Below the pieces are notes generated by a model, which was given only the letters and a program-made list of their open reading frames with translations, searched no databases and was not told the DNA's origin. From the IMG/VR virus record IMGVR_UViG_2718218127_000003: DNA of 21,552 nucleotides; one strand, given 5' to 3'. Shown here piece after piece: positions 5,791 to 21,221 of the stretch; the first letter of the stretch is position 1, and every line of letters begins with the position of its first letter. Source of the DNA: a virus (Duplodnaviria; Heunggongvirae; Uroviricota; Caudoviricetes). The position numbers were made by a program, and so were the translations under genes.

Positions 5791-5924
5791 GGATATTTAT
5801 CAGGATTTATCGGTTTCTGAACCCTGGATATGTTAAGCATTCAGCCCGTCAGTGGTAGGACACTGGCGCTCTGGTTAAGGATTATGGGGGATGCAGGCTG
5901 GGCTACCCCATCTGAGGATTTGAT

Positions 5925-6164: not shown

Positions 6165-6475
6165 CAACCCGTAATCGAGTTATCTGAACTGTTAATTTTT
6201 ATGGTATACCGCGCCTCTGAACAGGGGCGCGTTTCTGGCAACAGCTCGTCCCCTTCACATAACCCGGCAGCAACATCCAGGAAGACCTGTCTGATGCTCC
6301 TTCTGGCTGCTGCCTCATAAAACTCCAGCGCGGCACCTTCAACACGGTCCAGCGAGATGTCCAGGTCAAAAATTTCACCGTCAAAGCGTTTTTTGTCCCG
6401 TAACGCTAAAGTTACCGTAACTTTATTCTCAAAATTGCGGATCCCTTTCACAATCAGTTCATAGTTTTGAGTCAT
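6161..6475 (-). CDS. YdfR-like protein (DUF1327 family) of the Qin-type lysis cassette
   Basis: MTQNYELIVKGIRNFENKVTVTLALRDKKRFDGEIFDLDISLDRVEGAALEFYEAAARRS... ATG at 6473-6475 with GGGGAGAG upstream. It sits between holin and endolysin, as ydfR does between essQ and rrrQ. Confidence 0.7.
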   Translation of the reverse strand: MTQNYELIVKGIRNFENKVTVTLALRDKKRFDGEIFDLDISLDRVEGAALEFYEAAARRSIRQVFLDVAAGLCEGDELLPETRPCSEARYTIKINSSDNSITGC

Positions 6476-6479
6476 TGAA

Positions 6480-6695
6480 TTACTCTCCCCGTGCAGCCTT
6501 GCGCTTATCTTCTTTAATCTTGAAATAAAGGTTTGTCAGGTACGTCAGCAGGCCAAATACCAAGCTACCCAGCACACCTATTGCTGCCCACTGTGAGGGC
6601 GTGACTTTATCGAGCAGCTGTAAAAACCAGTAGCCAGCACTGCCTGCGGAGGTGCCGTAGGCAATGCCCGTTGTTAACTTATCCATGGATTTCAT
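6480..6695 (-). CDS. Class II holin, phage 21 S (pinholin)-like, with a dual-start motif
   Basis: [71 protein letters not shown], 71 aa, with Met1 and Met4 (antiholin/holin starts). Strong SD GGAGGTG. Confidence 0.85.
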
Positions 6696-6786
6696 AGCCT
6701 CACCTCCGCAAATAACGGATGGTGTACACGGTTCGGAACGAAGAGGAAAGGTATAGAAGTTACATTAGCGTAAGGCTTGAACATCT

Positions 6787-6821
6787 ATTCAAAAAGAAAA
6801 ACGCCAGCGATTATTCTGGCG
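6787..6821 (-). terminator. Intrinsic terminator downstream of the AraC-like gene and upstream of the holin
   Basis: On the minus strand: CGCCAG-aataatcg-CTGGCG followed by TTTTTCTTTTTG. Confidence 0.55.
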
Positions 6822-6888
6822 TAGCTGAAAGCATCATACAATTATCAAATACGAAAATTACAAAATCATTAAAACGCATCACGTTACA

Positions 6889-7614
6889 TCATGTCTTTTC
6901 TAAAAAAAATCTTGATGAATATTGATGGGGAGGAACACCAAAATATCTTCTGAAAACACTTACAAAATATGACGTGTTTTCATAACCGCATATCTCAGTA
7001 ACTTTTCCAACAGAATATAAATTGTAGCTTAATAACCTTTCCGCCATCACCATTCGCTCTTCAAGAATTAACTTACTAAATGATAAGCCTTCGTGCTTTA
7101 ATTTTCCTTTTAACAGACTTTCACTCAGATACAGTCTTGAAGATATATCACAAAGTCTCCATGCTGCAGATATATCCGTGTGAATAATAGCCTTAACTTT
7201 ACTTCCTAAACTATTAAGACATCCAAATAAAAAACTTTGCACTATTTTCTCTGAAGATAAGATAGCAAGACATGCAAGTGATATTTGATTTCTAACAAAA
7301 TCCACAGTTCTGCCATCACAATTCAAGCATGCAATCAAGTTCTTTAACAATGAAAAATCTTCACATTCCACCATCAAGTATGCCGGATAAAACCTTCTTA
7401 CAGAAAAAGGTGAGAGTGTGTTGCTTTTAAAGAAATCATTAACTGTTTTCTCTTCAACATCTACGATCATTGCATGATCTATATTTGATGAAAAAAAATC
7501 TTTTAAATTGTAATCAATGAGAACAGCACTTCCTTTTTTAAATAAAATATCTTCTTTACCAATTCGGACATCAAACGAGTTCAACACCAAAATGATAGAA
7601 CATATGTATGGCAT
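6889..7614 (-). CDS. AraC/XylS-family transcriptional regulator, AppY/EnvY-like (241 aa from the ATG); paralog of 228..971
   Basis: ...WRLCDISSRLYLSESLLKGKLKHEGLSFSKLILEERMVMAERLL...CGYENTSYFVSVFRRYFGVPPHQYS. ATG at 7612-7614 is preceded by AGGTGG. The gene and its 350-bp upstream region are AT-rich. Confidence 0.8.
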   Translation of the reverse strand: MPYICSIILVLNSFDVRIGKEDILFKKGSAVLIDYNLKDFFSSNIDHAMIVDVEEKTVNDFFKSNTLSPFSVRRFYPAYLMVECEDFSLLKNLIACLNCDGRTVDFVRNQISLACLAILSSEKIVQSFLFGCLNSLGSKVKAIIHTDISAAWRLCDISSRLYLSESLLKGKLKHEGLSFSKLILEERMVMAERLLSYNLYSVGKVTEICGYENTSYFVSVFRRYFGVPPHQYSSRFFLEKT

Positions 7615-7965
7615 ATTATCCACCTGATATCATTGGGGTTACACCAGGTAAGTATAGGTGGAAAATCAATATTCGCCAGTTCAACAATAAGGAAAATCTC
7701 ATTGCATCACAAGTATAAAATTATGTATTTAACTCACAAAGACAAATTATTAAACCAATCTGTTATATTATATATAGCTGCGTGGAATCATAATATTATA
7801 TATTTTGACTGGCATGTTTACCAACTTTAAGTTGCATCTCAATGGTTTCTTCAGCGTAAACAGAGTTTTTATACAAACTGACACTCTGGGTATCATAGTG
7901 TAGTTTTTACGATTGTAAATATCCTGCATGCAGGAACTCATCCTTTTGGATGATATCGCATACAA

Positions 7966-8925
7966 TTAATTTACCATCAGTCTTAGAGCCAGTTCGTCCG
8001 GATAGGGATCGAAGTAATTCTGTGTAAGCAAGTAATCATTAGGATACTCACCCAGATAATGCTTCAGCAGAGTCAACGGCGCAAGAAGAGGTAATGTGCC
8101 AGAACGATAGTTAAGTATAACCTCGCTCAACTCTTTACGCTGGCGTGTACTTAAGTAGTTACTAAAATACCCCTGTATATGCATCAGCACATTCGTGTGA
8201 TTTTTACGTGATGCAGGTTTTCTGAGAATCGCCATCAGCTTATCACGATACACCTCAAAGTATGATTCAAGGTCCGCCCACTCGTGTATTGCAGCCACAA
8301 ATGGTCCCATATCTTTATAGCCTGCCTGACTATGCGCCAACAACTGAAGCTTATAACGACTATGAAAAGCTAATAACTCTCTTCTTGATAATTTCTCCTT
8401 GTAAAGGTGATTGAGCTCATGCAAAGCAAAAACTCTTTCAACAAAATTCTCACGAAGCACTGGATCATGTAATCGCCCATCCTCTTCAACCGGTAGCCAG
8501 GAAAACTTTTCCATCAAAGTGCTCGTAAATAGTCCCACTCCATCTTTACGACCTCGATTACCATTTTCATCATAGACACGCACGCGCTCCATGCCACAGC
8601 TGGGAGATTTAGCACAAACCACAAACCCCGATACATCCTTTAATTTGTCCATATAAGAACGACTAAACTCTGTCATTCTCTCTGTCACATCCTCATTCTG
8701 GTCGTGGCTGAAACACATCCGAATATTTCCTTGCGTCGAGCGCACAAGACGTAGAGCAGGACGCGGAACTGGCAGCCCTATAGCCATTTCCGGACATACT
8801 GGTCTGAATGTTACCCATTCCACTAATTTGTCCATTAAAAAGTCAGCTCTTTTGTGACCACCATCAAAACGAACAGCAGAACCGGCCAGACAACCGCTGA
8901 TTCCAATCACAGGTTTTTTTATCAT
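7966..8925 (-). CDS. YbgA-family protein: N-terminal DUF523 (TudS-like, Cys-rich) fused to C-terminal DUF1722
   Basis: MIKKPVIGISGCLAGSAVRFDGGHK...PVCPEM...VVCAKSPSCGME carries the conserved cysteines and SPSCG motif of the DUF523/thiouracil-desulfidase family, with a helical C-terminal half. Strong SD GGGGGAGG. Confidence 0.75.
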   Translation of the reverse strand: MIKKPVIGISGCLAGSAVRFDGGHKRADFLMDKLVEWVTFRPVCPEMAIGLPVPRPALRLVRSTQGNIRMCFSHDQNEDVTERMTEFSRSYMDKLKDVSGFVVCAKSPSCGMERVRVYDENGNRGRKDGVGLFTSTLMEKFSWLPVEEDGRLHDPVLRENFVERVFALHELNHLYKEKLSRRELLAFHSRYKLQLLAHSQAGYKDMGPFVAAIHEWADLESYFEVYRDKLMAILRKPASRKNHTNVLMHIQGYFSNYLSTRQRKELSEVILNYRSGTLPLLAPLTLLKHYLGEYPNDYLLTQNYFDPYPDELALRLMVN

Positions 8926-9117
8926 ATCCTCCCCCTTGACTAATTCATTAACACATAAACTGTGTAGTGCACGGAATAAATTGCCTTTCTGGCGTCATCA
9001 CTGACAATTTTTCTGTTATGGACTATTCCTAATATAGTATGAAAGTTCTTTAAGTGATCGGTCGTAATCATCTATCTTTCATACTTACTCTCAACTATCA
9101 AAAGTACAGGATTTATT

Positions 9118-9642
9118 ATGAAGTTATGGCCTGTGTTGACTGGCATTGCACTCTCTTTCACTCTTATAGCATGTAAGGCCCCGACACCACCTAAAGGTGT
9201 GCAGCCGATTACAAATTTTGACGCCAACCGCTACCTCGGAAAGTGGTATGAAATAGCTCGCCTCGAGAACCGGTTCGAACGTGGTCTGGAACAGGTCAGC
9301 GCTACTTATGGAAAACGGAACGACGGAGGGATTCGTGTACTTAACCGTGGATACGATCCAACGAAAAATAAATGGAGCGAGAGCGAAGGTAAAGCATACT
9401 TTACTGGAGATACTAAAACTGCAGCGTTGAAGGTTTCGTTTTTTGGCCCCTTCTATGGTGGCTATAATGTAATCAAACTGGATGATGAGTATAAGTATGC
9501 TCTTGTCAGTGGTCCGAACAGAGAATACCTATGGATTCTGGCAAGGACCCCAACTATTCCAGATAAAGTAAAAGCAGACTATGTGCGAACCGCTCAAAAG
9601 TTGGGATTCAATGTCAATGAATTATTATGGGTTAAACAATAA
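9118..9642 (+). CDS. blc: Outer-membrane lipocalin lipoprotein, Blc family (paralog-like, prophage-borne)
   Basis: Lipoprotein signal MKLWPVLTGIALSFTLIAC, then ...NFDANRYLGKWYEIARLENRFERGLEQV...GKAYFTG...LKVSFFGPFYGGYNVI...YLWILARTP..., the bacterial lipocalin signature. Confidence 0.85.
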   Translation: MKLWPVLTGIALSFTLIACKAPTPPKGVQPITNFDANRYLGKWYEIARLENRFERGLEQVSATYGKRNDGGIRVLNRGYDPTKNKWSESEGKAYFTGDTKTAALKVSFFGPFYGGYNVIKLDDEYKYALVSGPNREYLWILARTPTIPDKVKADYVRTAQKLGFNVNELLWVKQ

Positions 9643-9667
9643 AATCCCTACCCGAAATAATACTTAT

Positions 9668-9697
9668 TAGAAAAAAACCAGCCTTTGGGGAGGCTGG
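9668..9697 (-). terminator. tR'-like intrinsic terminator about 100 nt downstream of Q
   Basis: On the minus strand: CCAGCCT-ccccaa-AGGCTGG followed by TTTTTTTCT. The position matches the lambda pR'-tR' unit on which Q acts. Confidence 0.55.
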
Positions 9698-9797
9698 CTA
9701 AATCAGGAAACAAGCTGTTATATGATAATAACTACGTTGCGATTCCAACATTTAAAATGTTAGACTAATGAGAATCAGACAGCAACTTTTCCTTTAA

Positions 9798-10175
9798 TTA
9801 TTTCGAACAATCAGCATCCATCTCCAATCGGAGATCCAACACCATCAGCATACCCTCCACTACGCCCTCAGCTTTCTGGAGCATCCTGCCAACCCAACAA
9901 TCAGATCGCCCATGCTTACGTGCAAGCGCCATAAAAGTCATGCCGCCGACATAATAGTCCACCAATAAATCGTGCAAATCGCTGTTGTTCTTTTTCAGAC
10001 GGGCCATGCACCCGCAAATGATCATCGCGTCATCGTCACAACATTGCGGGCGAGATTTTACTTTTGAAGGAATTAATCCCTTAAAACCGGCGGCAATGGA
10101 CGACCAGGTCACATCTTCATGATTATTAGCCGCCCATGCTCCCCAACGCTCCAGAACCATCTGAATATCACGCAT
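9798..10175 (-). CDS. Late-gene antitermination protein Q (phage 82/21 type, QuuD-like)
   Basis: [76 protein letters not shown]... The ATG at 10173-10175 is preceded by GGAG; the TTG 4 codons upstream used by the ORF track is less likely. Confidence 0.85.
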
Positions 10176-10192
10176 CAACTTTCTCCACAAAA

Positions 10193-11188
10193 TCAGGCCA
10201 GCACACCAATCGCCAGCGCACGATCGATAAAACGAAATATCAGCTCCAGCTGGGAGCCATACTTCTCTTCAAATGCCACGGTATCCGCATGCAGCTCGTC
10301 GTGATGCTTTCTGCACAAAGGCAACACAAAAAGGTCATGCGCTTTTGTACCCATTCCACCCTGACCGTGGCCTATCAGGTGATGGGGATCATCGGCGGGC
10401 TTTCCACAACATGCACACGGCTGCGTCTTAACCCAGCGCGTGTACTTTTCATTAACCCAGCGGCGACGTTTTGGGCGTAACATAAAAGACTCCGGCGACT
10501 CCGGCTCCACTTTCAGCGCCAGCACCTTTTTCGCTTTATCCTGGATGATGCTGGTGGCAGGAACCGAAGGAACAAGATCACTTTCCCGGGTGACAGACGG
10601 CACAACAGGCTTCGGTAATCTCAGTGCCTTACGGGCTGCACTTTCCGGTAAGGCATCCGCCAGGTCATTACGAACCAGCCACCAGCACAGTTCCGGCATT
10701 GTCACAACGTGACTGTCATCAAAACCGAGATCCCGACGCACGACAGACAACACCCAGCGGGCACAGTTATCCGTTGCCATTGATTCCAGCCGTTCCGTGA
10801 ACTGATCGCGCAGCTGGTTATCGCAGTGCCAGCACAGACGGATTGCGCCCGGAGCGTGTCGCATTGTGGTCATGTTCTCGCTGTGCCAGTCGGAATGAGG
10901 CCACTGGCAGCCTTTTTCACGAAGTAACCAGCTTTCAAGACATTCCACGCCACCAGCACGACGGATCACCGCCTCATTGCGGAACACAGACCGAACGGCA
11001 GGATCATCCGCCAGTGGTTGTAATGCCGCCGGAACGGCACCACTGGAAAAAGATGAATAATGTTCCGGCTCAGGCTCCAGCAGGACACGCCCCTGCATAA
11101 ACAGGGGCATCAGCTCTGAACCGGGTCTGAACAATACGATCCCCATACGCGGGGCAACTTCAGGGGTCAGTAGTGCTCTCACGGTCAC
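10193..11188 (-). CDS. DUF968-family prophage protein (YdfU-like) with a C-terminal HNH-like Cys/His motif
   Basis: C-terminus ...[47 protein letters not shown]. It lies immediately upstream of Q, as ydfU does in Qin. The start is GTG and uncertain. Confidence 0.7.
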
Positions 11189-11189
11189 C

Positions 11190-11763
11190 TCAATGAACGG
11201 TATCGAGCAGCTTTAACAGCTCAGGGAATCGGGATTCGAAGAAATGCGGCTGCGTCTCGCGCGGATTTGCGGGACTGGTGATATTCTTGCCGAACATGCA
11301 GCCTTTCGCTGTCAGCGACCAGAATTTTTTGATGTTGTTAATCGCGGTACGGCTGTATCGTTCGCGCTGCTCGACGATCCCCAGCTTCACCATCTGGTGA
11401 TATGCCTGATTAGCTGTCAGGCGGATACCATACTGCTTCAGCAGTGCACTCAGTGACAGCGTGGGGCGGCTTGAGCCATCAGGCGCGTCAGCAGGAGCAT
11501 CAATGGCATAGCGCGGTGCCAGATTCGGTACCCTGGCGACGCGCCTTACGCGTTAACCAGCCTTCTGCTTCCAGCCGTGCGATAGCCGTCCTGACGGTAC
11601 TCATCCCCGCGCCAATCTGACGGGCAATAGTTTCAATTGATGGCCAGCACACACCTTCGTCATTACTGAAATCAGCCAGGCGGGCCATAATTGCCACGCT
11701 GGATAATTTCATGCCTGATGCAGCGCAACCATCCCATACATAGCCGGTTAATTTAGTGCTCAT
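11190..11763 (-). pseudogene. Helix-turn-helix phage protein (replication/regulatory-like), apparently frameshifted near 11500-11520
   Basis: The 87-aa ORF (MSTKLTGYVWDGC...RLEAEGWLTRKARRQG) stops at 11500, and protein-like sequence continues in another frame (RYAIDAPADAPDGSSRPTLSLSALLKQYGIRLTANQAYHQMVKLGIVEQ...) into the 67-aa ORF ending at 11190. Confidence 0.5.
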
Positions 11764-12111
11764 GACCGACCTCTATTTCCCTGAATTTACGACGAAACTG
11801 TTCGAGCGGGCTGAAGCACTCATGCTCATAGCCTTCGCGGAGGTAGATAACTCGTTGTGTTTCCGGCTCCCAACGAATGACTCTGACGGGCACTCCGTAG
11901 TGATCTTTGAACCAGCGGTTAACTTGTCGCAAAGGACTGTCTCCTTCTGCCGGTTGAAATCACCCACAGCCCACTCAGCAAAGCTGTGGGTTACAATTTC
12001 CCTGTCACCTGGTACATTAACTGCATAGCAATACTCCACCTTCGCTTTTCCACCCGGTACAGGAAGCGCAATCAGTTGCGAGCGACGGTAGTGTGTTGTT
12101 AAACTGTTCAT
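11753..12111 (-). pseudogene. Hypothetical phage early protein, frameshifted near 11940-11975
   Basis: The N-terminal frame ([50 protein letters not shown]) then degrades, while another frame gives protein-like ...[62 protein letters not shown], whose stop overlaps the next ATG. Confidence 0.5.
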
Positions 12112-12671
12112 GCGTTAGTTTCTCCACAGTCACGACACGCCACGGCGCCCGGAGCTGCACACTCGCGGGCGTCATTACTTTCTGAAATGCAAAAGATTTT
12201 GTAGACCAGTGCTGCATGCTCCTGCAGCTTCGAAATTGAGAGATACAGCTCGTCGTTAATTGCTGTCTTCTCATGCGGTTCCACTACACCGTCTTCGATT
12301 GCTGAACGAATCTGTTTTGAATAACTGCCGATCTGTTCAATGACTTCCAGCAGACGCTGGTTAATATCGGCGTTGTCCACATCCTCGACGTCAGGAAGAG
12401 ACACAAAGACGCCATTTGCAGACTGCGCCACAGCGTCAGCAATGAAGTGAGTTCCACCAGCACGTTGCAAAATCATTGCCCATCCCAGCGGGAAAATCTG
12501 ATCGCCATCGGCACGAAGGCGGTTAAATAATGCGTTCTCTGTTACATCCAGCCAGTCAGCCGCTTCAGCGTAACCACCCGGCAACGCCGCGATAGTTTTT
12601 CTGACAGCTTTCACGTACCACTCAGGCTGTTTTTCTATTTTCCAGTGATGCTTACCCACGATTAGCCTCAT
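12108..12671 (-). CDS. Phage regulatory protein, CII-like / YdaT-like, downstream of cro
   Basis: 187 aa with ATG at 12669-12671. Its stop overlaps the next gene start (ATGA). It is second in the pR-side operon after cro, as ydaT/cII are. Confidence 0.6.
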
Positions 12672-12702
12672 CGTTCTGTGGTTAAAAATTGAAAGTGTTC
12701 TG

Positions 12703-12903
12703 CTAATCTTTCGGATAGATATCCGGTCTTAAGTCAGATTTCGTAATTGCACCTGACGTGCATTGCTCAAGTTTTTTAGCCAGCACAAAACTGGCTTTTT
12801 TATAGCCATTGAAAACCAGCCGTAAGTAGCCAGGTGTTGAGCCAACTTTTCCGGCCAACTCGCCCTGCTGTTCTTTGGTTAAAGAGTCCCAATACGCTTT
12901 CAT
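12703..12903 (-). CDS. Cro-like HTH regulator (YdaS family), 66 aa
   Basis: MKAYWDSLTKEQQGELAGKVGSTPGYLRLVFNGYKKASFVLAKKLEQCTSGAITKSDLRPDIYPKD. ATG at 12901-12903 with SD GGAGGT. Divergent from the cI-like gene. Confidence 0.8.
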   Translation of the reverse strand: MKAYWDSLTKEQQGELAGKVGSTPGYLRLVFNGYKKASFVLAKKLEQCTSGAITKSDLRPDIYPKD

Positions 12904-12906
12904 ACA

Positions 12907-12978
12907 ATATGTACCTCCGGTGTACATATTACATGATTGAAATGAACCTTCAAGATACTTGTACCTTAACGGTACAAG
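12907..12978. promoter_or_regulatory. Immunity operator/promoter region (oR-like) with two palindromes between cro and cI
   Basis: ATATGTAC-ctccggt-GTACATAT (12907-12929) and CTTGTACC-ttaac-GGTACAAG (12958-12978) share the half-site (A/T)TGTACC. Confidence 0.5.
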
Positions 12979-12993
12979 GGTTTTAATTTCGTT

Positions 12994-13668
12994 ATGAAAA
13001 CAATCCATGACATCCGGCGGTCTAACGCCAGAAAACTGAGAGATGGTGTTGGCGGGAATTCTTCCTTTGCCACTATGATTGATCGCGAGCCAACCCAGAC
13101 CAGCAGGTTTATGGGAGATGGTGCTACTAAAAATATCGGTGACAGCATGGCACGACACATCGAAAAATGTTTCGACCTGCCTGTCGGATGGCTCGATCAA
13201 GAACACCAGACAACGAACATCACAAAAAAACCTGATGTTTCAATCACTAATAAACAAATCACATTAGTCCCTGTCATATCATGGGTACAGGCCGGAGCAT
13301 GGAAAGAAGTTGGATATTCTGAGGTTGATTTGAGCACAGCAGAAACGTATCCCTGCCCTGTACCCTGTGGGGAAATGACTTATATCTTGCGGGTGATAGG
13401 TGATTCAATGATTGATGAGTACCGCCCGGGAGACATGATTTTTGTCGATCCTGAAGTACCTGCCTGCCACGGTGACGACGTTATTGCATTGATGCACGAT
13501 ACAGGTGAAACCACCTTCAAAAGGTTGATAGAAGATGGGACACAGCGTTATCTCAAAGCGTTAAACCCAAACTGGCCTGAGCCTTACATTAAGATCAACG
13601 GTAATTGCTCTATAATTGGAACTGTGATTTTCTCAGGAAAACCAAGAAGATACAAAATCAAAGCCTAA
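12994..13668 (+). CDS. cI-like prophage repressor: N-terminal HTH, C-terminal S24 (LexA-like) autopeptidase
   Basis: The C-terminal domain has an AG cleavage site (VQAG/AW), the GDSM serine motif and a downstream Lys (TFKRL). The ATG has almost no SD, consistent with a leaderless pRM-type transcript. Confidence 0.85.
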   Translation: MKTIHDIRRSNARKLRDGVGGNSSFATMIDREPTQTSRFMGDGATKNIGDSMARHIEKCFDLPVGWLDQEHQTTNITKKPDVSITNKQITLVPVISWVQAGAWKEVGYSEVDLSTAETYPCPVPCGEMTYILRVIGDSMIDEYRPGDMIFVDPEVPACHGDDVIALMHDTGETTFKRLIEDGTQRYLKALNPNWPEPYIKINGNCSIIGTVIFSGKPRRYKIKA

Positions 13669-13688
13669 TCAATGTTTATGAACCTGCT

Positions 13689-13712
13689 TCGGCAGGTTTT
13701 TTTATACTTGAC
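13689..13712 (+). terminator. Intrinsic terminator after the cI-like gene
   Basis: AACCTGC-ttcg-GCAGGTT followed by TTTTTTT. Confidence 0.6.
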
Positions 13713-13715
13713 AAT

Positions 13716-13749
13716 GTACCTTTGAGATACATAATGTACCCAAGAGAAA
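13716..13749 (+). promoter_or_regulatory. pL-like promoter overlapped by an operator palindrome
   Basis: TTGACA-N16-CATAAT. The spacer contains ATGTACC-tttga-GATACAT (13722-13740), the same half-site and 5-bp spacing as the oR palindromes, plus a further ATGTACC at 13742-13748. Confidence 0.5.
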
Positions 13750-13816
13750 CAACAAACAGGCAGGACGCCCACGAAGTATCCGCCTGGGGCATATGAAGTC
13801 CAGGATGATTCGTTAG

Positions 13817-13846
13817 CAACAAAAAAGCGCCCTACAGGACGCTTAG
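13817..13846 (-). terminator. Intrinsic terminator downstream of the 173-aa gene
   Basis: On the minus strand: AAGCG-tcctgtaggg-CGCTT followed by TTTTGTTG. Confidence 0.45.
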
Positions 13847-13885
13847 CTCTTTAACAATCTGGGTATCATCCAACCAATGCAAGAT

Positions 13886-14407
13886 TTAAGGAATCCAAGG
13901 CGAATTCAGATCTCGCCCCAACTCACGTAATGATCTTGGTCGTTCGTACATCGGATTTTTTTCCATAAGAAATTTATTTTCACAGTGAAGGCAACGGCTT
14001 GTAAGAAAATGAGAAGTTTTACCTACTGGAAGCGGATGAAGTATCGATTTTATATTTTTGGAATAACAAAGTGGGCACAGATGCACAGTTATTTCTTTTC
14101 CACTCACAATTTCATTTTTAGAGTAAACAAAAGCACCAGAGTCAAGCTGATCAAGGACATATCCTTCTACCTTGGCACAAAAATCTTCAAACTCTGCAAT
14201 TTTTGCTTTGAGATGCATCACCTCTTCATCACGAAGGCGGATCGCATCGCCAAGAGAGAAGCATTCTGCCTGAAGCGTGATTAGTTTGTTCTGGAGTTCA
14301 ATGGTTGCAGCTTTAACTTCTGCATCCGTTTTCGCGTCATTAATAACCTTAGCAAGACCGGCAGTCTCCTTTATAGCGGCCATAGCCGCAGACAGTTCAG
14401 CTATCAC
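13886..14407 (-). CDS. Hypothetical protein, 173 aa: N-terminal coiled coil and C-terminal CxxC-X22-CxxC zinc-ribbon-like motif
   Basis: ...HLCPLCYSKNIKSILHPLPVGKTSHFLTSRCLHCENKF. The gene is AT-rich, convergent with cI, and has its own terminator. The start is uncertain (GTG at 14405-14407 or the ATG 8 codons in). Confidence 0.55.
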   Translation of the reverse strand: MIAELSAAMAAIKETAGLAKVINDAKTDAEVKAATIELQNKLITLQAECFSLGDAIRLRDEEVMHLKAKIAEFEDFCAKVEGYVLDQLDSGAFVYSKNEIVSGKEITVHLCPLCYSKNIKSILHPLPVGKTSHFLTSRCLHCENKFLMEKNPMYERPRSLRELGRDLNSPWIP

Positions 14408-14876
14408 GTTGAATACTCAGCTAGTTGTTGGGGATATCCAGATTAACCAAATCCTTGTTGTTGGGGAATAACTAGGTCCACCTCGCCTGATGTGGCTAAA
14501 AGCAGGCACATAACAGCTAAGTATTTTCAACCAGAGAGAATCCTTAGCGTTGTGGTGAATGCGGCTCAGCGCACGCGGGTTAAGGTTGAGGCTGACAGTC
14601 GACCTTCTGTGGATACCCACCCGCCTGGTGTGCAACCTTCGCCAGGCACCGGGAGGCACCCGGCACCACAACTTTATGCTGTGTGTAGTCCTGGCGGTAT
14701 CAGCTTGTACCCTTGCTTCCGGCTGGTACCGTCCTTTTTACAAAACAGAGAAGAGCATCACCGGACGACGGGCTCATAACCCAATCCATCCGGGCGGCTG
14801 CCACCGCAGGTGTTCTTCTCTGTTTTGTGGAGAAACCAACCGACCCTGCAGGGTCGATATGATGGGGAGCAGCAAA

Positions 14877-15239
14877 ATGGCTAGCGAACGCAGTACTGAT
14901 GTGCAGGCATTTATCGGGGAGCTGGACGGCGGCGTATTTGAAACCAAAATCGGCGCAGTTCTCAGTGAAGTCGCTTCCGGTGTGATGAACACGAAAACCA
15001 AAGGTAAGGTCTCGCTCAACCTGGAAATCGAACCGTTTGATGAGAACCGTGTAAAAATCAAACACAAACTCTCATATGTTCGCCCGACTAACCGCGGGAA
15101 AATTTCCGAAGAAGACACCACCGAAACGCCGATGTATGTCAATCGCGGTGGTCGCCTGACTATTCTGCAGGAAGACCAGGGACAATTACTGACTCTTGCC
15201 GGTGAACCTGACGGAAAACTCCGCGCAGCAGGTCGTTAA
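14877..15239 (+). CDS. YfdP-like prophage protein (120 aa)
   Basis: MASERSTDVQAFIGELDGGVFETKIGAVLSEV... ATG at 14877 is preceded by GGGGAG with 7-nt spacing. The upstream in-frame extension is GC-rich and low-complexity and is rejected. Confidence 0.7.
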   Translation: MASERSTDVQAFIGELDGGVFETKIGAVLSEVASGVMNTKTKGKVSLNLEIEPFDENRVKIKHKLSYVRPTNRGKISEEDTTETPMYVNRGGRLTILQEDQGQLLTLAGEPDGKLRAAGR

Positions 15240-15304
15240 TATCGTTTTTAATAAACTGATTATTTATCTCATCACTGAATATCTTTATATAGTGAGGACT
15301 TATT

Positions 15305-16129
15305 ATGTCTCAGAACTTAGACGCAACCGCAATTAATCAAATCCATGCCCTTATTTCTGCTCAGGGTGTTAATGAAATTATCAGTAAGATTGGTGCCGAT
15401 GCTGTGGCATTGCCTGAGAATTTCCGCATTCATGATCTGGAAAAATTTAATTTAAATCGCTTCCGTTTCCGTGGTGCGCTTTCCACTGCCAGCATCGATG
15501 ACTTTACCCGTTATTCTAAAGATCTTGCAGATGAAGGCACCCGCTGCTTTATCGATGCTGATAATATGCGAGCCGTCAGTATGCTTAACCTGGGTACTAT
15601 TGATGAACCAGGTCACGCAGATAACACCGCCACTCTCAAACTGAAAAAGACAGCACCGTTCTCTGCCCTGTTGTCTGTTAACGGCGAGCGTAACTCCCAG
15701 AAGTCACTGGCAGAATGGATTGAAGACTGGGCCGACTACCTTGTGGGCTTTGATGCTAATGGTGACGCCATTCAGGCAACAAAAGCGGCTGCGGCGGTCC
15801 GTAAAATCACGATTGAAGCAAACCAGACCGCTGATTTTGAAGACAATGACTTCAGCGGCAAACGCTCTCTGATGGAGTCTGTCGAAGCGAAAACCAAAGA
15901 CATTATGCCAGTAGCATTTGAGTTTAAATGCGTTCCGTTTGAAGGCCTGAAAGAACGTCCGTTTAAATTACGCCTCAGCATTATCACTGGTGATCGCCCT
16001 GTACTGGTTCTGCGCATTATTCAGCTGGAAGCAGTGCAGGAAGAAATGGCTAACGAATTTCGTGATCTGCTTGTTGAAAAATTCAAAGACAGCAAAGTAG
16101 AAACCTTTATTGGTACTTTCACCGCCTGA
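15305..16129 (+). CDS. YfdQ-like prophage protein (DUF2303 family), 274 aa
   Basis: Good SD (TGAGGA). The size and position match yfdQ in the CPS-53-type early-left module. Confidence 0.75.
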
Positions 16130-16141
16130 TTTCATTACTGC

Positions 16142-16166
16142 AAATGCCCCTGCGGGGGCATTTATG
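16142..16166 (+). terminator. Strong stem-loop between the yfdQ-like and yfdR-like genes (possible attenuator or partial terminator)
   Basis: AAATGCCCC-tgcg-GGGGCATTT, a 9-bp GC-rich stem, followed by AT-rich sequence but no clean U-run. Confidence 0.3.
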
Positions 16167-16256
16167 GAAACGTAATTAACTCAATAATCGCCTGATGGCG
16201 AGGGTTTTCTTTAACCAAAATTCAGCGCGGTGCAGCGCATATACGTGGAGAACAAA

Positions 16257-16793
16257 ATGTCATTTATTAAAACTTTTTCCGGGAAGCATTTTTATTATGA
16301 CAGGATAAATAAAGACGACATCGATATTAACGATATCGCGGTTTCCCTTTCAAATATCTGTCGCTTTGCCGGTCATCTTTCGCACTTCTACAGCGTCGCC
16401 CAACATGCGGTTCTTTGCAGCCAGCTGGTGCCGCAGGAATTTGCTTTTGAAGCGTTAATGCATGATGCAACAGAAGCGTATTGCCAGGACATTCCCGCAC
16501 CACTGAAACGCCTTCTTCCTGACTATAAACAAATGGAAGAAAAAATAGACGCCGTAATCCGTGAGAAATACGGGTTACCCCCAGTTATGAGTACGCCCGT
16601 GAAATATGCCGATCTCATCATGCTGGCAACCGAACGCCGCGATCTCGGGCTTGATGATGGCTCTTTCTGGCCTGTACTGGAAGGTATCCCGGCAACAGAG
16701 ATGTTCAACGTGATTCCACTGGCACCGGGCCATGCCTACGGGATGTTTATGGAACGCTTTAACGAGTTATCGGAGTTACGCAAATGCGCATGA
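16257..16793 (+). CDS. HD-domain phosphohydrolase, YfdR-like (5'-deoxynucleotidase family), 178 aa
   Basis: ...FAGHLSHFYSVAQHAVLCSQL...ALMHDATEAYCQDIPAPLK... is an HD motif. ATG at 16257 with GGAG upstream; the GTG at 16230 used by the ORF track is less likely. Confidence 0.8.
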   Translation: MSFIKTFSGKHFYYDRINKDDIDINDIAVSLSNICRFAGHLSHFYSVAQHAVLCSQLVPQEFAFEALMHDATEAYCQDIPAPLKRLLPDYKQMEEKIDAVIREKYGLPPVMSTPVKYADLIMLATERRDLGLDDGSFWPVLEGIPATEMFNVIPLAPGHAYGMFMERFNELSELRKCA

Positions 16794-17146
16794 ATGTTTT
16801 CGAAATGGAAGGGTTTCTTCGTGGGAGATGTGTACCGCGAGATCTGAAAGTAAATGAAACAGATGCTGAATACCTGGTGCGTAAATTCGATGCGCTTGAA
16901 GCTAAATGTGCAGCACAGGAAAACAAAGTAATACCAGTGTCAACTGAACTGCCACCAGCAAATGAAAGTGTTTTGTTATTCGATGCTAACGGAGAAGGCT
17001 GGCTAATTGGCTGGCGTTCTCTCTGGTACACCTGGGGACAAAAAGAAACCGGAGAATGGCAGTGGACATTTCAGGTCGGGGACCTTGAAAACGTCAATAT
17101 CACTCACTGGGCAGTAATGCCAAAAGCACCGGAGGCTGGAGCATAA
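16784..17146 (+). CDS. DUF551-family prophage protein (YfdS-like), 120 aa
   Basis: C-terminal Trp-rich segment ...GEGWLIGWRSLWYTWGQKETGEWQWTF... SD GGAG. Overlaps its neighbours, consistent with an operon. Confidence 0.75.
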   Translation: MRMNVFEMEGFLRGRCVPRDLKVNETDAEYLVRKFDALEAKCAAQENKVIPVSTELPPANESVLLFDANGEGWLIGWRSLWYTWGQKETGEWQWTFQVGDLENVNITHWAVMPKAPEAGA

Positions 17147-17475
17147 TGACCACTTTTACCGACAAAGAACTGATTAAAGAAATTAAAGAGCGTATCAGCA
17201 GCCTTGACGTGCGAGACGATATTGAGCGCCGTGCTTATGAAATCGCACTCCTATCTCTGGAAGTAGAACCAGATGAACGCGAAGCTTATGAATTATTCAT
17301 GGAAAAGCGTTTCGGTGACTTAGTAGATCGTCGGAGAGCAAAAAACGGCAATAACGAATACATGGCATGGGATATGACTCTCGGTTGGATCGTCTGGCAG
17401 CAACGAGCTGGTATCCATTTTTCAACAATGTCACTGAATCGCCACGGGTTTAACAGACACCTCAGAGTCATTTAA
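17146..17475 (+). CDS. YfdT-like prophage protein; the 3' end is probably altered by the IS insertion at about 17435
   Basis: ATG overlaps the upstream stop (TAATG), with SD GGAGG. The last ~14 codons are read from the IS terminal repeat. Confidence 0.6.
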   Translation: MTTFTDKELIKEIKERISSLDVRDDIERRAYEIALLSLEVEPDEREAYELFMEKRFGDLVDRRRAKNGNNEYMAWDMTLGWIVWQQRAGIHFSTMSLNRHGFNRHLRVI

Positions 17476-17497
17476 GATGGCTTAAAGAGAGGTGCCC

Positions 17498-17748
17498 ATG
17501 AGCGGTAAGCGTTATCCCGAAGAGTTTAAAACTGAAGCAGTCAAACAGGTTGTTGATCGCGGTTATTCTGTTGCCAGCGTTGCAACACGTCTCGATATCA
17601 CCACCCACAGCCTTTATGCCTGGATAAAGAAGTACGGTCCGGATTCTTCCACTAATAAAGAACAGTCAGATGCTCAGGCCGAGATCCGCCGTCTCCAGAA
17701 AGAGCTGAAACGGGTTACCGACGAACGGGACATATTAAAAAAAGCCGC
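17498..17748 (+). pseudogene. IS3-family OrfA (HTH), interrupted by IS30; the last 9 codons resume at 18972-18999
   Basis: MSGKRYPEEFKTEAVKQVVDRGYSVASVATRLDITTHSLYAWIKKYG...ILKKAA, then after IS30 AYFAKLSD*. Confidence 0.8.
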
Positions 17749-18969
17749 TGTAGATTCAATTGGTCAACGCAACAGTTATGTGAAAACATGGGGTTGCGGA
17801 GGTTTTTTGAATGAGACGAACATTTACAGCAGAGGAAAAAGCCTCTGTTTTTGAACTATGGAAGAACGGAACAGGCTTCAGTGAAATAGCGAATATCCTG
17901 GGTTCAAAACCCGGAACGATCTTCACTATGTTAAGGGATACTGGCGGCATAAAACCCCATGAGCGTAAGCGGGCTGTAGCTCACCTGACACTGTCTGAGC
18001 GCGAGGAGATACGAGCTGGTTTGTCAGCCAAAATGAGCATTCGTGCGATAGCTACTGCGCTGAATCGCAGTCCTTCGACGATCTCACGTGAAGTTCAGCG
18101 TAATCGGGGCAGACGCTATTACAAAGCTGTTGATGCTAATAACCGAGCCAACAGAATGGCGAAAAGGCCAAAACCGTGCTTACTGGATCAAAATTTACCA
18201 TTGCGAAAGCTTGTTCTGGAAAAGCTGGAGATGAAATGGTCTCCAGAGCAAATATCAGGATGGTTAAGGCGAACAAAACCACGTCAAAAAACGCTGCGAA
18301 TATCACCTGAGACAATTTATAAAACGCTGTACTTTCGTAGCCGTGAAGCGCTACACCACCTGAATATACAGCATCTGCGACGGTCGCATAGCCTTCGCCA
18401 TGGCAGGCGTCATACCCGCAAAGGCGAAAGAGGTACGATTAACATAGTGAACGGAACACCAATTCACGAACGTTCCCGAAATATCGATAACAGACGCTCT
18501 CTGGGGCATTGGGAGGGCGATTTAGTCTCAGGTACAAAAAACTCTCATATAGCCACACTTGTAGACCGAAAATCACGTTATACGATCATCCTTAGACTCA
18601 GGGGCAAAGATTCTGTCTCAGTAAATCAGGCTCTTACCGACAAATTCCTGAGTTTACCGTCAGAACTCAGAAAATCACTGACATGGGACAGAGGAATGGA
18701 ACTGGCCAGACATCTAGAATTTACTGTCAGCACCGGCGTTAAAGTTTACTTCTGCGATCCTCAGAGTCCTTGGCAGCGGGGAACAAATGAGAACACAAAT
18801 GGGCTAATTCGGCAGTACTTTCCTAAAAAGACATGTCTTGCCCAATATACTCAACATGAACTAGATCTGGTTGCTGCTCAGCTAAACAACAGACCGAGAA
18901 AGACACTGAAGTTCAAAACACCGAAAGAGATAATTGAAAGGGGTGTTGCATTGACAGATTGAATCTACA
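17749..18969 (+). mobile_element. IS30, complete (1221 bp) with a 2-bp GC target duplication
   Basis: Ends TGTAGATTCAATTGGTCAACGC... and ...GACAGATTGAATCTACA. GC is present on both flanks. Confidence 0.9.
17811..18962 (+). CDS. insI: IS30 transposase (383 aa)
   Basis: MRRTFTAEEKASVFELWKNGTGFSEIANILGSKPGTIFTMLRDTGG... through the DDE domain to the IS30 end. Confidence 0.9.
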   Translation: MRRTFTAEEKASVFELWKNGTGFSEIANILGSKPGTIFTMLRDTGGIKPHERKRAVAHLTLSEREEIRAGLSAKMSIRAIATALNRSPSTISREVQRNRGRRYYKAVDANNRANRMAKRPKPCLLDQNLPLRKLVLEKLEMKWSPEQISGWLRRTKPRQKTLRISPETIYKTLYFRSREALHHLNIQHLRRSHSLRHGRRHTRKGERGTINIVNGTPIHERSRNIDNRRSLGHWEGDLVSGTKNSHIATLVDRKSRYTIILRLRGKDSVSVNQALTDKFLSLPSELRKSLTWDRGMELARHLEFTVSTGVKVYFCDPQSPWQRGTNENTNGLIRQYFPKKTCLAQYTQHELDLVAAQLNNRPRKTLKFKTPKEIIERGVALTD

Positions 18970-19055
18970 GCGGCGTACTTCGCAAAGCTGTCCGACTGAG
19001 GTACGCCTTTATCCGTGACAACTCCTGTTGCTGGCCTGTTCGCCTGCTCTGTCGG

Positions 19056-19868
19056 GTGCTGGATGTTCATCCCAGTGGTTTTTACGCCTGGCTTCAGCAG
19101 CCGCATTCACAACGCCATCAGGCAGACCTGAGACTGACAGGACAGATTAAACAGTTCTGGCTGGAATCGGGATGCGTCTATGGTTATCGCAAAATCCATC
19201 TGGATTTGCGTGACAGCGGGCAACAGTGCGGAGTAAACAGAGTCTGGAGACTGATGAAACGTGTCGGAATAAAGGCTCAGGTCGGATACCGAAGCCCGCG
19301 GGCACGTAAAGGCGAGGCCAGTATCGTGTCACCCAACAGGCTCCAGCGACAGTTCAATCCGGATGCTCCTGATGAGCGTTGGGTAACGGACATAACCTAC
19401 ATCAGGACCCACGAAGGCTGGCTGTATCTTGCCGTTGTTGTTGATCTGTTCTCACGCAAAATTATCGGCTGGTCCATGCAATCCCGGATGACAAAGGACA
19501 TTGTCCTGAACGCACTGCTGATGGCTGTATGGCGGCGTAATCCCGAAAAACAGGTGCTGGTTCATTCGGATCAGGGCAGTCAGTACACAAGCCATGAGTG
19601 GCAGTCGTTCCTGAAATCACACGGCCTGGAGGGTAGCATGAGCCGTCGCGGTAACTGCCATGATAATGCGGTTGCAGAAAGTTTTTTCCAGTTGTTGAAA
19701 CGTGAACGGATAAAGAAAAAGATCTACGGAACGCGGGAAGAAGCCCGCAGTGATATTTTTGATTACATCGAAATGTTTTATAACAGTAAGCGTCGGCATG
19801 GTTCTAGCGAACAGATGTCACCGACAGAATATGAAAACCAGTATTATCAACGGCTCGGAAGTGTCTAG
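19056..19868 (+). CDS. IS3-family OrfB transposase (rve/DDE domain); the 5' part overlaps orfA and is normally reached by a -1 frameshift
   Basis: ...WVTDITYIRTHEGWLYLAVVVDLFSRKIIGWSM...LVHSDQGSQYTS...GNCHDNAVAESFF... Confidence 0.85.
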   Translation: MLDVHPSGFYAWLQQPHSQRHQADLRLTGQIKQFWLESGCVYGYRKIHLDLRDSGQQCGVNRVWRLMKRVGIKAQVGYRSPRARKGEASIVSPNRLQRQFNPDAPDERWVTDITYIRTHEGWLYLAVVVDLFSRKIIGWSMQSRMTKDIVLNALLMAVWRRNPEKQVLVHSDQGSQYTSHEWQSFLKSHGLEGSMSRRGNCHDNAVAESFFQLLKRERIKKKIYGTREEARSDIFDYIEMFYNSKRRHGSSEQMSPTEYENQYYQRLGSV

Positions 19869-19964
19869 ATTATCCGTGGCGATTCACTTCTCAGTGAGAA
19901 GGCCTTATTTGTATTGTTTCAAAAAATTACTAAAATGCAGTTTCGTTACGCAATTTTCTATAGA

Positions 19965-21221
19965 TTACTGATAGTCATCAGCAAGTCCGCTACTAAATAA
20001 CGTTTCTGCATTTTCAGCGGTAGCAACAGCATCCTGCACATCCTGCCGTTTCAAATCTAACACTCGTAATTTACCCTTTACTTCGGCGACAGATTCGATT
20101 CGCCTGTAAGCATCAGAATGATGTTCGGCATATAGCGCAAGTCCTTCCAGTTTGGGCAAAGCATCAGCCAGATGTAGGCTATGTGGATCTACCAGGTCCA
20201 CAACCATTTTGCCATCCTGTTCGGCAAAGAACAGGAAATCGGGACGAACAATCTTGTACTGTTCAGCTTCAACATAAGCGATTCCCAGTGACGACTGCCC
20301 TGTGTACTGTGGATTACGATACCAGAAAGCAAATCCTTCACGTTTGGTTTCGATCTCAAAAACCTTGGTTTCCCAATGGTTCAACAGAGCCGGATAGTTC
20401 CCGCTTTCGTCACACAACAAATGGTGTTTCCAGACTGGAAGGTCAGCTTCCTTTTCACCTTCACGCACCCTGGTCATTTCAAACTTGTTCGCCGGCCTGA
20501 CCAGATCCACATCCTGCGGTTCGGTACTCATTTCGACGATTTGACGATAGGCCTCTTTACGCTCATCTTTCAACGACTTGATTTGCGGTGTGTACTCGGC
20601 CAGCCACGCCTTCGCCAGTCTATCGGCCTCGCCATCGAAGTAATCCTGCACCTCCATCACCAGCCCCATGCCAGCAACGGTAACACGAGCCTCCATGATT
20701 GCTTCCAGATATTCCTCTGCATCCTCTTCTCGATCCGCAACCTTATCGGCCAGATATTCGACATAGGTACGTGAAACATCCGGGCTGAAAATTCGGGCTG
20801 CACGCCGGTAGGCGTCATCAATCACCGTTACGTCCGCCTCCTCCCAGAATTCGTTGAAGGTCATTGCTTTGTTCTTGAGGCTGGCAACCACAGCCTTACC
20901 ATCTACGACGAGCACTGCATTGCGTTTGTTTTTGATTTTCTCGGCATTTTCTATCTGGAACTTGTCCAGAACAGCGTGCAAAGCAGCATGGGCTTTCCTG
21001 ACTGCCCCATCAAGAATACCGTCATCAACCAGTTCCTGTGCCAGCGCGGTCAGACGTCTGGCGGGTCTGGCTCCTTTCTGTGGTCGGGTTTGCGAAGGTA
21101 GCGCTTCAAATGCTTCCCATACTTCAGCTGAAGCAGCCGGGTTAGGTTTCATCTCCACAGGGTTAACCAGGATGCGTCCGCTTGGAGGAGAGGTATCATC
21201 GCCCTTAAACAAGGTATTGAC
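19965..21221 (-). pseudogene. 3' portion (at least 415 codons) of a large gene of unknown function; the 5' part is separated or removed by the IS1 insertion
   Basis: The reading frame is open right up to the IS1 left inverted repeat at 21222, where the only in-frame stop lies inside IS1. The first codon in the ORF track is TTG, with no credible start. The C-terminal region ...YKIVRPDFLFFAEQDGKMVVDLVDPHS... is faintly nuclease-like. Confidence 0.55.

Follow-up and report, generated by a model that had tools for sequence, protein, structure and literature searches.

A probable early-left yfdPQRST block from a decayed SfIV/SfV-like lambdoid prophage and the conserved RNA leader that precedes it

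The five genes yfdP to yfdT in the stretch of viral DNA analyzed here (the window; 21,552 nt, IMG/VR record IMGVR_UViG_2718218127_000003, Caudoviricetes) are very probably the early-left genes of an SfIV/SfV-like lambdoid prophage that has decayed; in Escherichia coli K-12, the same block survives as yfdPQRST of CPS-53/KplE1. This judgment bears on the explanation as a whole, including the regulation and the DnaA-related role that we propose below. The genes themselves are already known, the block being, at the sequence level, a near-identical copy of a characterized K-12 prophage cluster that occurs across hundreds of E. coli genomes as well as in phages of Shigella, Salmonella, and E. coli that have been sequenced. 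What is new beyond these genes is an RNA leader immediately ahead of yfdP, whose structure is conserved and shows covariation. In addition, the window copy retains the phage's own regulatory region, now missing from K-12, which points to the cluster as the start of the pL operon in an SfIV-type phage. The coordinates of all features are collected in Table 1.

Table 1. Features of the early-left region and of the adjoining insertion elements (window coordinates)
Feature	Position	Strand	Description and basis
cI-like repressor gene	12994-13668	+	224 aa; S24 peptidase C-terminal domain
Candidate pL	13708-13735	+	TTGACA-16 nt-CATAAT; 11/12 consensus positions
Two OL-like operator repeats	13713-13731, 13733-13751	+	Overlap candidate pL
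boxA-like 12-mer GCTCTTTAACAA	13846-13857	+ (pL-sense)	Just after hairpin 13825-13844
sRNA-like element	14519-14741	+	Resembles STnc100/DicF, sub-threshold; ends in hairpin 14693-14733, then U-run (to 14739)
Structured 5' leader of yfdP	14740-14858	+	Alignment of 23 diverse loci, RNAalifold
yfdP	14877-15239	+	120 aa; ORF listing, K-12 alignment
yfdQ	15305-16129	+	274 aa, DUF2303; ORF listing, K-12 alignment
yfdR	16257-16793	+	178 aa, HD-domain phosphohydrolase; ATG start
yfdS	16784-17146	+	120 aa, C-terminal DUF551
yfdT', 3'-truncated	17146-17475	+	96 native codons to 17434, then 13 IS-derived codons and stop
IS3-family element	17435-19886	+	38-nt imperfect inverted ends; NCBIfam transpos_IS3 on both ORF halves
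IS30 nested in the IS3-family element	~17749-18969 (transposase 17811-18962)		RefSeq annotation of matching records

The preliminary description of this DNA had likened the block to the yfdPQRST module of CPS-53/KplE1, and the comparison that it proposed with the K-12 proteins revealed not low similarity but 95-99% identity, so that the likeness holds in size, order, and sequence. In global protein alignments with MG1655, YfdP is identical at 118 of 120 positions (98%), YfdQ at 271 of 274 (99%), YfdR at 174 of 178 (98%), and YfdS at 115 of 120 (96%); YfdT is identical at 91 of 96 positions (95%) and then diverges. The DNA from 14858 to 17434 is 96.5% identical to that of K-12, the homology beginning only ~18 nt ahead of the yfdP ATG, and the best genome matches in RefSeq carry the same gene names. 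yfdP belongs to PHROG 204 and, by precomputed annotation, to PF27127; YfdQ matches PF10065 (E 4.5e-92), and YfdS just passes the PF04448 cutoff (22.2 bits; cutoff 22). A longer ORF for yfdR, with a GTG start, begins at 16230 in the ORF listing. The five genes had also been described as tightly coupled, which is true of yfdR, yfdS, and yfdT, whose ends overlap (by 10 nt for yfdR/yfdS and 1 nt for yfdS/yfdT), but not of the remaining junctions: 65 nt separate yfdP from yfdQ, and the 127 nt between yfdQ and yfdR hold a weak terminator-like hairpin at 16188-16201.

Two segments of the window are close to phage SfIV, namely, the region with cro, cI, and the sequence downstream (11529-13862; 98.8% DNA identity) and that comprising the leader and yfdPQRST (14424-17434; 98.4%). 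The product of the cI-like gene matches Pfam Peptidase_S24 (E 1.5e-26) and PHROG 4, "transcriptional repressor." Just 3' of this gene, and reading away from it, lies the candidate pL, which by consensus match is the best promoter-like site within 12600-17500. It is overlapped by putative operators that recur at OR: the repeat family, (A)ATGTACC...ACA, comprises the OL copies and three more between cI and cro (12909-12976). Further downstream, the boxA-like 12-mer, which we take to be the rrn boxA consensus, has its sole exact match in the window at this place, where ~0.17 matches with at most one mismatch would be expected by chance. The order immunity region, block, and then xis-int is found in the functional phages SfIV, ST64B, and cdtI and in an intact thrW prophage of strain AB66. 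The early-left placement under pL that was put forward in the preliminary description is thus supported by the local arrangement of repressor gene, operator repeats, promoter match, and boxA as well as by the synteny in SfIV, cdtI, and ST64B, and these features favor the view that yfdP-yfdT lies in a lambdoid pL/early-left operon.

We propose that, in the lysogen, cI bound to OL would hold pL off and keep the block silent. Upon induction, transcripts from pL would pass the reverse-strand gene (173 aa, within segment 13863-14423), the terminator of the sRNA-like element, and the folded leader before reaching yfdP-yfdT. No N-like gene was found among the window ORFs, and the next gene after boxA is on the opposite strand. 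Given the terminator-like hairpin between the candidate pL and yfdP and the lack of an N-like gene among these ORFs, expression from pL would depend on read-through. Alternatively, the block might be domesticated host cargo that raises stress tolerance, as has been proposed for K-12 CPS-53, and might be controlled by the host rather than driven by pL. In K-12, the host regulator SrsR, which has four binding boxes in the yfdO-yfdP interval, switches on yfdPQ during stationary phase (PMC9181523), and deletion of yfdQ or yfdS is reported to raise sensitivity to H2O2 (Wang 2010, as cited). However, the K-12 region upstream of yfdP is a deletion joint that is absent here, the SrsR box (TCAGATTTTG) does not occur in the window, and the phage's own immunity region and leader are still in place, so that we regard such host control as very improbable for the present copy.

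Two RNA elements precede yfdP. The first aligns to the whole model of STnc100 (Rfam RF02076), sharing its core ...GUGGUGAAU...CACCGGGAGGCACCCGGCACCA, with a score of 40.5 bits against a gathering threshold of 47 (E ~2e-7), and the scan of the window at gathering thresholds returned no match. Its 3' hairpin resembles the terminator hairpin of DicF (RF00039), the score for which is 20.5 bits with a gathering threshold of 48. dicF sits in a repressor-controlled early operon, as does the sRNA-like element here. PasD, a relative of STnc100, has been described beside Q, and STnc100 matches are found near PasA, PasC, and PasD, in neither case beside cI.

The second element, the yfdP leader, is predicted to fold as a three-way junction. 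The outermost stem, P1, has 20 bp (14740-14759 with 14809-14828) and encloses P2 (14761-14767 with 14787-14793), whose loop contains CGGGCUCAUAACCC, and P3 (14794-14797 with 14804-14807), where other genera carry an insert of variable length. A further hairpin, P4 (14839-14858), is followed by the SD and the ATG of yfdP. RNAalifold predicts the same structure from the alignment of 23 loci, in which 93% of the cells are paired, compared to 35-51% in slid controls. Compensatory changes affect 14 pairs, a number reached by none of 500 shuffles, and the fold of the single sequence has a z score of -5.07. A covariance model built on the leader finds one plus-strand copy in the window, scoring 133 bits, and its shadow on the minus strand at 43.7 bits; in most loci a copy abuts yfdP. 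The leader matches no Rfam family in the window, and a gathering-threshold Rfam scan of the regions upstream of yfdP in 16 diverse loci likewise returned no family.

We considered whether the GC-rich region upstream of yfdP might be a put-type antiterminator RNA, as in HK022. Such an RNA would be expected twice, once in each early operon, and would resemble putL/putR in sequence. The region shows no similarity to the immunity region of HK022, and the leader covariance model finds no copy in HK022 and a single one in the window; the put hypothesis was therefore rejected. Instead, the ~120-nt leader may be an undescribed cis-acting structured RNA that belongs to the yfdP-yfdQ(-yfdR) module of SfV/ST64B-type temperate phages in Enterobacterales, an interpretation, together with the functions suggested for it, to which we attach an evenly balanced degree of belief. 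The three-way junction could serve as an RNase III processing site or as a switch acting on translation, setting the expression of YfdPQ once transcription has passed the sRNA terminator. The P2 loop shares 14 identical nucleotides with the anticodon arm of initiator tRNA-fMet; that the loop mimics this arm is pure speculation. The window contains no tRNA genes.

The genes behind the leader were also compared across genomes. Relatives of YfdQ on viral contigs are 99-100% identical and were useless for this purpose, so that diversity was supplied by a genome collection. Among 78 genome loci, yfdP is directly upstream of the yfdQ homolog in 77, and yfdR accompanies the pair in 59; yfdS is next to yfdQ in only 6 and yfdT in 4. 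This distribution shows the apparent evolutionary unit to be yfdP-yfdQ(-yfdR) behind a folded leader RNA and not the yfdQRST set of the multicopy assay in which an effect on replication was seen in K-12. The leader and the P-Q pair offer a concrete handle for the study of these phages; within the pair, residues 85-110 of YfdP, a conserved and disordered C-terminal stretch, are predicted to dock on YfdQ.

The effect in question is the inhibition of replication initiation through YfdR and DnaA, which the preliminary description mentioned and which is indeed documented. Purified YfdR of K-12 binds specifically to DnaA domains I-II, through domain I and in a Phe46-dependent manner, and multicopy yfdQ and yfdR together with either yfdS or yfdT inhibit initiation at oriC; yfdQ is needed for this phenotype, and yfdP is dispensable (Noguchi and Katayama 2016, PMC4776307). 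The effect requires overexpression, initiation is unaltered upon deletion, and the authors themselves raise the possibility of an artifact (PMC4776307). From the 98% identity of the two proteins, we infer that YfdR of the window would also bind DnaA and inhibit initiation. By analogy with K-12, it would contact the Phe46 patch of DnaA domain I in competition with DiaA and DnaB, and YfdR and YfdQ, along with YfdS or YfdT, would damp initiation at oriC. A role of the block in host takeover, as suggested in the preliminary description, is likewise something that we infer. A comparison of YfdS with YfdT revealed no common similarity that might account for their being interchangeable in the K-12 assay.

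The near-constant linkage of yfdP and yfdQ, together with the rarity of yfdS and yfdT, suggests that DnaA inhibition may not be the whole, or even the selected, function of the core. One may therefore imagine that YfdP and YfdQ, often with YfdR, serve another early function of the phage, such as DNA or nucleotide handling or anti-defense, and that DnaA binding is a side effect of overexpression. The dispensability of yfdP and the authors' own reservation are in keeping with this idea, as are the invariant HD catalytic residues of YfdR and the occurrence of DUF2303-fold proteins in phages of Gordonia and in sequences from uncultured phages (Caudovirales). Yet the alternative activity has no positive evidence, a PADLOC search for defense systems returned no match for any of the five proteins, and the binding of purified YfdR to DnaA is specific. 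We therefore consider this explanation possible but unlikely, and we prefer the early-left block with a DnaA-directed role.

YfdR had been assigned to the 5'-deoxynucleotidase family of HD-domain proteins, an assignment that stands only in part. The residues of the HD motif, whose loss had been named as grounds for doubt, are all present (H50, H69, D70, E73, D78, and D119), at least 98% conserved across 55 homologs that are 50-98% identical, and aligned with those of YfbR and of Atu1052 (2gz4), the nearest solved structure (E 3e-14) and itself an uncharacterized protein. All four substitutions relative to K-12 (R16K, D23V, Q92R, and E170D, the window residue being given first) fall outside the motif. 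The K-12 protein is annotated as a 5'-deoxynucleotidase in RefSeq, and YfdR matches PHROG 318, "deoxyribonucleoside 5' monophosphate phosphatase" (E 2.7e-110). In contrast, the cutoffs of the YfbR family were missed, narrowly for the YfbR-like Pfam model (PF12917; 25.2 bits against 25.9) and widely for the NCBIfam equivalog (NF003009, PRK03826; 20.5 against 122). YfbR (2paq), the 5'-deoxynucleotidase of E. coli, belongs to the same HD superfamily and has the motif HDxxE(x4)D(L/I)PxP(L/V)K in common with YfdR, but the alignment of the two is only local, over the HDxxE(x4)D segment (E 0.88), and DnaA binding has been reported for YfdR of K-12 beyond what is shared with YfbR. Judged by these profiles, YfdR is a separate HD subfamily (PHROG 318), a distant relative of YfbR and not its ortholog.

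The invariance of the catalytic residues points to selection for enzyme activity. Because the HD site is conserved, YfdR would be expected to hydrolyze a phosphoester substrate in addition to binding DnaA; the reported substrates are dNMPs, at low affinity. The role of YfdR might even be mainly metabolic, that of a dNMP 5'-nucleotidase reshaping the deoxynucleotide pool during phage development, with the other genes as unrelated neighbors. The T5 Dmp enzyme is comparable to what such a role would entail. The spacing of HDxxE(x4)D shared with YfbR, the invariant residues, and the names given by PHROG 318 and RefSeq all fit with this proposal; nevertheless, YfdR scores below the YfbR-family cutoffs, and its close linkage to yfdPQ speaks against unrelated neighbors. 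A mainly metabolic YfdR thus appears improbable to us, and we retain the proposal in which hydrolysis would accompany an effect on DnaA.

The last gene was said to be damaged at its 3' end by an IS insertion. The loss of the yfdT 3' end is real: the last five codons of K-12 YfdT (QQEVK) are replaced by LNRHGFNRHLRVI, which is read from the IS, and the junction, as compared with the intact 3' end in SfIV, reads ...ATGTCAC followed directly by TGAATCGCC. The matching RefSeq records annotate both IS3 family and IS30 elements. However, the event is not a simple insertion: the right flank of the IS3-family element is unrelated to yfdT, xis, and int and does not contain the missing 3' end of yfdT, and no target duplication surrounds the element. 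It is a rearrangement that took away xis and int, and for that reason the window copy cannot excise. A search of 5,426 complete E. coli genomes did not find the exact yfdT::IS junction in any of them. Since YfdT is not needed in K-12 when YfdS is supplied, any effect on initiation should persist despite the clipping of YfdT.

The window can be placed among its known relatives as follows. The Shigella serotype-converting phages SfIV, SfV, and SfII have the same layout, in which cI is followed by the leader, yfdP and the genes after it, xis, and int. In SfIV, the 13863-14423 segment is swapped for other reverse-strand ORFs, and it is absent in cdtI. Variant forms of the SfIV-type early-left region are found in phage cdtI and in ST64B, a Salmonella phage; ST64B has only the leader and yfdP-Q-R in common with the window, at 67-78% DNA identity, and bears other genes before xis. 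CPS-53/KplE1 of MG1655 contains the five genes in the same order (b2359-b2363; 120, 274, 178, 120, and 101 aa), and its yfdR/S/T overlaps and remaining intergenic gaps equal those described here. K-12 has lost the entire upstream region through a deletion that fuses yfdP to a yfdO/ori remnant bearing the SrsR boxes, whereas the window retains cro, cI, OL/pL, boxA, the sRNA-like element, and the structured leader. Conversely, yfdT is intact in K-12, with ypdJ and torI (excisionase) behind it, while in the window yfdT is clipped by the IS and both xis and int are lost.

Window positions 14877-17475 (+) hold five genes placed and ordered as in K-12 yfdPQRST, as the preliminary description proposed, a reading borne out by the open reading frames and by alignment of each product to its MG1655 CPS-53 counterpart. 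These protein identities (see the table), together with a megablast identity of up to 99.9% for 14500-17434 across 5,426 complete E. coli genomes, establish that the yfdP-yfdT block is real and far beyond chance; in the matched genomes, the RefSeq gene names are likewise yfdP to yfdT. The block is already known: it is almost identical to K-12 yfdPQRST, for which a candidate function has been published. The tight coupling ascribed to all five genes holds for the yfdR/yfdS (10-nt) and yfdS/yfdT (1-nt) overlaps only, since gaps of 65 nt and 127 nt separate yfdP from yfdQ and yfdQ from yfdR.

Features of the yfd block and its surroundings (positions in the window)
Feature	Position	Strand	Remarks
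cI-like repressor	12994-13668	+	intact, S24 domain; upstream of yfd block
Candidate pL	13708-13735		TTGACA-16-CATAAT, toward yfdP; overlaps OL copies
boxA	13846-13857	+	exact 12 nt (GCTCTTTAACAA), ~100 nt downstream of candidate pL
173-aa gene	13886-14407	-	PHROG 1244; CxxC...CxxC near C-terminus; between pL and early genes
sRNA-like element	14519-14741	+	full-length but sub-threshold STnc100 match, within presumed pL transcript
Structured RNA leader	14740-14858	+	right after 14693-14739 hairpin and U-run, directly upstream of yfdP
Leader P1			20-bp outer stem, closes three-way junction
Leader P2			hairpin, loop highly conserved
Leader P3			hairpin, insert of variable length
Leader P4			hairpin just ahead of Shine-Dalgarno
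yfdP	14877-15239	+	ORF; 118/120 identical to K-12 YfdP
yfdQ	15305-16129	+	ORF; 271/274 identical to K-12 YfdQ
Terminator-like hairpin	16188-16201		weak; yfdQ-yfdR gap
yfdR	16257-16793	+	ORF; 174/178 identical to K-12 YfdR
yfdS	16784-17146	+	ORF; 115/120 identical to K-12 YfdS
yfdT	17146-17475	+	ORF; 91/96 identical to K-12 YfdT
IS3-family element	from 17435; inverted end 19849-19886		begins TGAATCGCCACGG...
IS30 copy	about 17749-18969		nested in IS3-family element

Noguchi and Katayama found that yfdQRST suppresses hda-185 when in multicopy, the minimal set being yfdQ and yfdR with either yfdS or yfdT, and yfdP being dispensable; DnaA pulled down YfdR only, via domains I-II and in a Phe46-dependent manner (PMC4776307). 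Deletion had no phenotype, the authors considered that overexpression might have produced the effect artefactually, and Shigella phage SfV was noted to encode YfdQRST homologues (PMC4776307). The link proposed earlier between the K-12 cluster, YfdR binding to DnaA and inhibition of initiation accurately reflects that study. Comparative data delimit a different unit. We collected 78 loci with YfdQ homologues (37-99% identity) from a one-genome-per-species collection, ranging from Escherichia through Proteus, Photobacterium and Psychromonas to an Endozoicomonadaceae genome. yfdP lies directly upstream of yfdQ in 77 of the 78, the sole exception being cut off by a contig end, and yfdR lies downstream in 59, whereas yfdS and yfdT are found beside yfdQ in only 6 and 4, respectively. 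These counts identify yfdP-yfdQ, usually with yfdR, as the evolutionary core, a correction that we add here; yfdS, which combines an Ea22-like N-terminus with DUF551, and yfdT are mosaic accessories. The K-12 genetic set does not match this core, and mainly for this reason we keep the rather unlikely alternative that the block was selected for something other than DnaA inhibition.

The near-constant adjacency of yfdP and yfdQ, along with occasional database proteins (P0011, P0073, P0160) that carry PF27127 and PF10065 domains in one chain, suggests that YfdP and YfdQ work as a pair. Their structures were predicted with pLDDT values of 67 for YfdP, whose C-terminus is highly conserved yet disordered in the model, and 76.7 for YfdQ. 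Neither model had informative PDB neighbours, and among viral structure models the searches gave only other DUF2303 proteins; PADLOC returned no matches on the block.

In YfdR, none of the HD catalytic residues is lost: H50, H69-D70, E73, D78 and D119 are present and 98-100% conserved among 55 homologues (50-98% identical to the window protein), and the four differences from K-12 all lie outside the motif. The segment LMHDATEAYCQDIPAPLK aligns with MYHDASEVLTGDLPTPVK of YfbR and with the uncharacterised Atu1052, the closest solved structure. The proposed membership of the 5'-deoxynucleotidase family agrees with these features but not with the profile scores, which fall below both the Pfam YfbR-like cutoff (25.2 versus 25.9 bits) and that of the NCBIfam YfbR equivalog (20.5 versus 122). 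On sequence grounds, YfdR is a member of a phage HD subfamily (PHROG 318) and not a YfbR orthologue.

The 3' end of yfdT is indeed damaged: beyond residue 96, 13 insertion-sequence-derived residues replace the K-12 tail QQEVK, and 17434 is the last position homologous to K-12 and to phage SfIV. A simple IS insertion does not account for this, however, since the missing yfdT end is not in the right flank of the IS, no target duplication was found around the IS3-family element, and intact relatives carry an excisionase and then an integrase gene downstream of yfdT. We conclude that five yfdT codons, xis, int and the attachment site were all lost in an IS-mediated rearrangement. None of the 5,426 complete E. 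coli genomes searched has this precise junction. E. coli MB06022 (L002, locus 7001-25776) matches window 1-16738 at 100% identity, beyond which it shows an IS1-associated deletion within yfdR; independent events in related strains have thus truncated the same prophage remnant at separate sites within the yfd block. A 415-aa ORF (19965-21212, -), flanked by the IS3-family element and an IS1 copy, has no Pfam or NCBIfam family and a very weak PADLOC match (PDC-M34A, E 0.006).

The window represents a lambdoid prophage in a degraded state. A cI-like repressor gene and a divergent cro-like gene precede the yfd block, and a repeat family, (A)ATGTACC...ACA, has three copies in the cI-cro spacer (12909-12976) and two just past cI (13713-13751), the layout of putative lambdoid OR and OL operators. 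The candidate pL is the best sigma-70 match in 12600-17500 (11/12 positions). The cro-cI-OL block and the leader plus yfdPQRST are 98.8% and 98.4% identical to phage SfIV, respectively, and in SfIV, cdtI, ST64B and an intact thrW prophage, yfdP and the following genes sit between cI and xis-int. This anatomy, with boxA, and synteny make the early-left assignment well supported, in line with the initial proposal, pL itself being predicted. No N-like gene was found after boxA, and on the way from the candidate pL to yfdP transcription would have to cross a reverse-strand gene and then a hairpin resembling a terminator, with its U-run (14693-14739); this 173-aa gene behaves like a moron, as its segment is swapped for other reverse-strand ORFs in SfIV and absent in cdtI. 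A direct repeat, CT(A/T)GTTGTTGGGGA (14421-14434 and 14454-14467, +; 33 nt apart), at the start of the SfIV-conserved block and ahead of the sRNA-like element, may bind a protein or belong to a promoter.

The 470 nt from the reverse-strand gene to yfdP contain no clean ORF, and RefSeq annotates a "frameshifted hypothetical" protein there in related genomes. In E-value mode, the sRNA-like element scores below the Rfam STnc100 threshold (40.5 versus 47 bits), and its 3' hairpin and U-run give a weak DicF-like match. The only Rfam match above gathering score within the window is IS009 (RF02111; 2516-2714, -; 212 bits), in the tail-fibre-assembly part of the prophage remnant. The leader that follows the sRNA-like element is better conserved than the flanking proteins: its DNA is 80-93% identical in genera where protein identity for YfdP and YfdQ is down to 55-62%. 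In an alignment of 23 loci, diverse at genus level, 93% of leader cells are paired, versus 35-51% with partners slid by 1-3 columns, and 14 pairs show compensatory changes, a count matched by 0 of 500 shuffles. RNAalifold independently predicted the same four-helix fold, which the window sequence alone also adopts (z = -5.07). G.U pairs and covariance-model scores (133 bits on +, 43.7 on -) favour the yfdP-sense strand. The P2 loop, with its nearly invariant CUCAU core and variable flanks, contains CGGGCUCAUAACCC, an exact 14-nt match to the anticodon arm of initiator tRNA (tRNA-fMet) from E. coli, which we regard as a curiosity. Neither Rfam 15 nor the retrieved papers on DUF2303, yfdP and STnc100 yielded a matching family or description, and the leader is a candidate new RNA that deserves a separate look.

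The native phage regulatory context, a further addition of our analysis, sets this copy apart from K-12. A two-copy put-type antiterminator was considered and rejected: the covariance model has a single match in the window and none in HK022, to which the leader has no similarity, and in about 55 of 74 genome loci a match lies directly against the start of yfdP, which argues for a yfdP-specific leader. The order of a hairpin (13825-13844), which doubles as terminator of the convergent reverse-strand gene, and then boxA is closer to rrn leaders than to lambda nut sites. In K-12, the entire leader is absent and homology to the window starts only about 18 nt ahead of the yfdP ATG; SrsR boxes, of which the window has none, lie upstream of K-12 yfdP and confer host control (PMC9181523).
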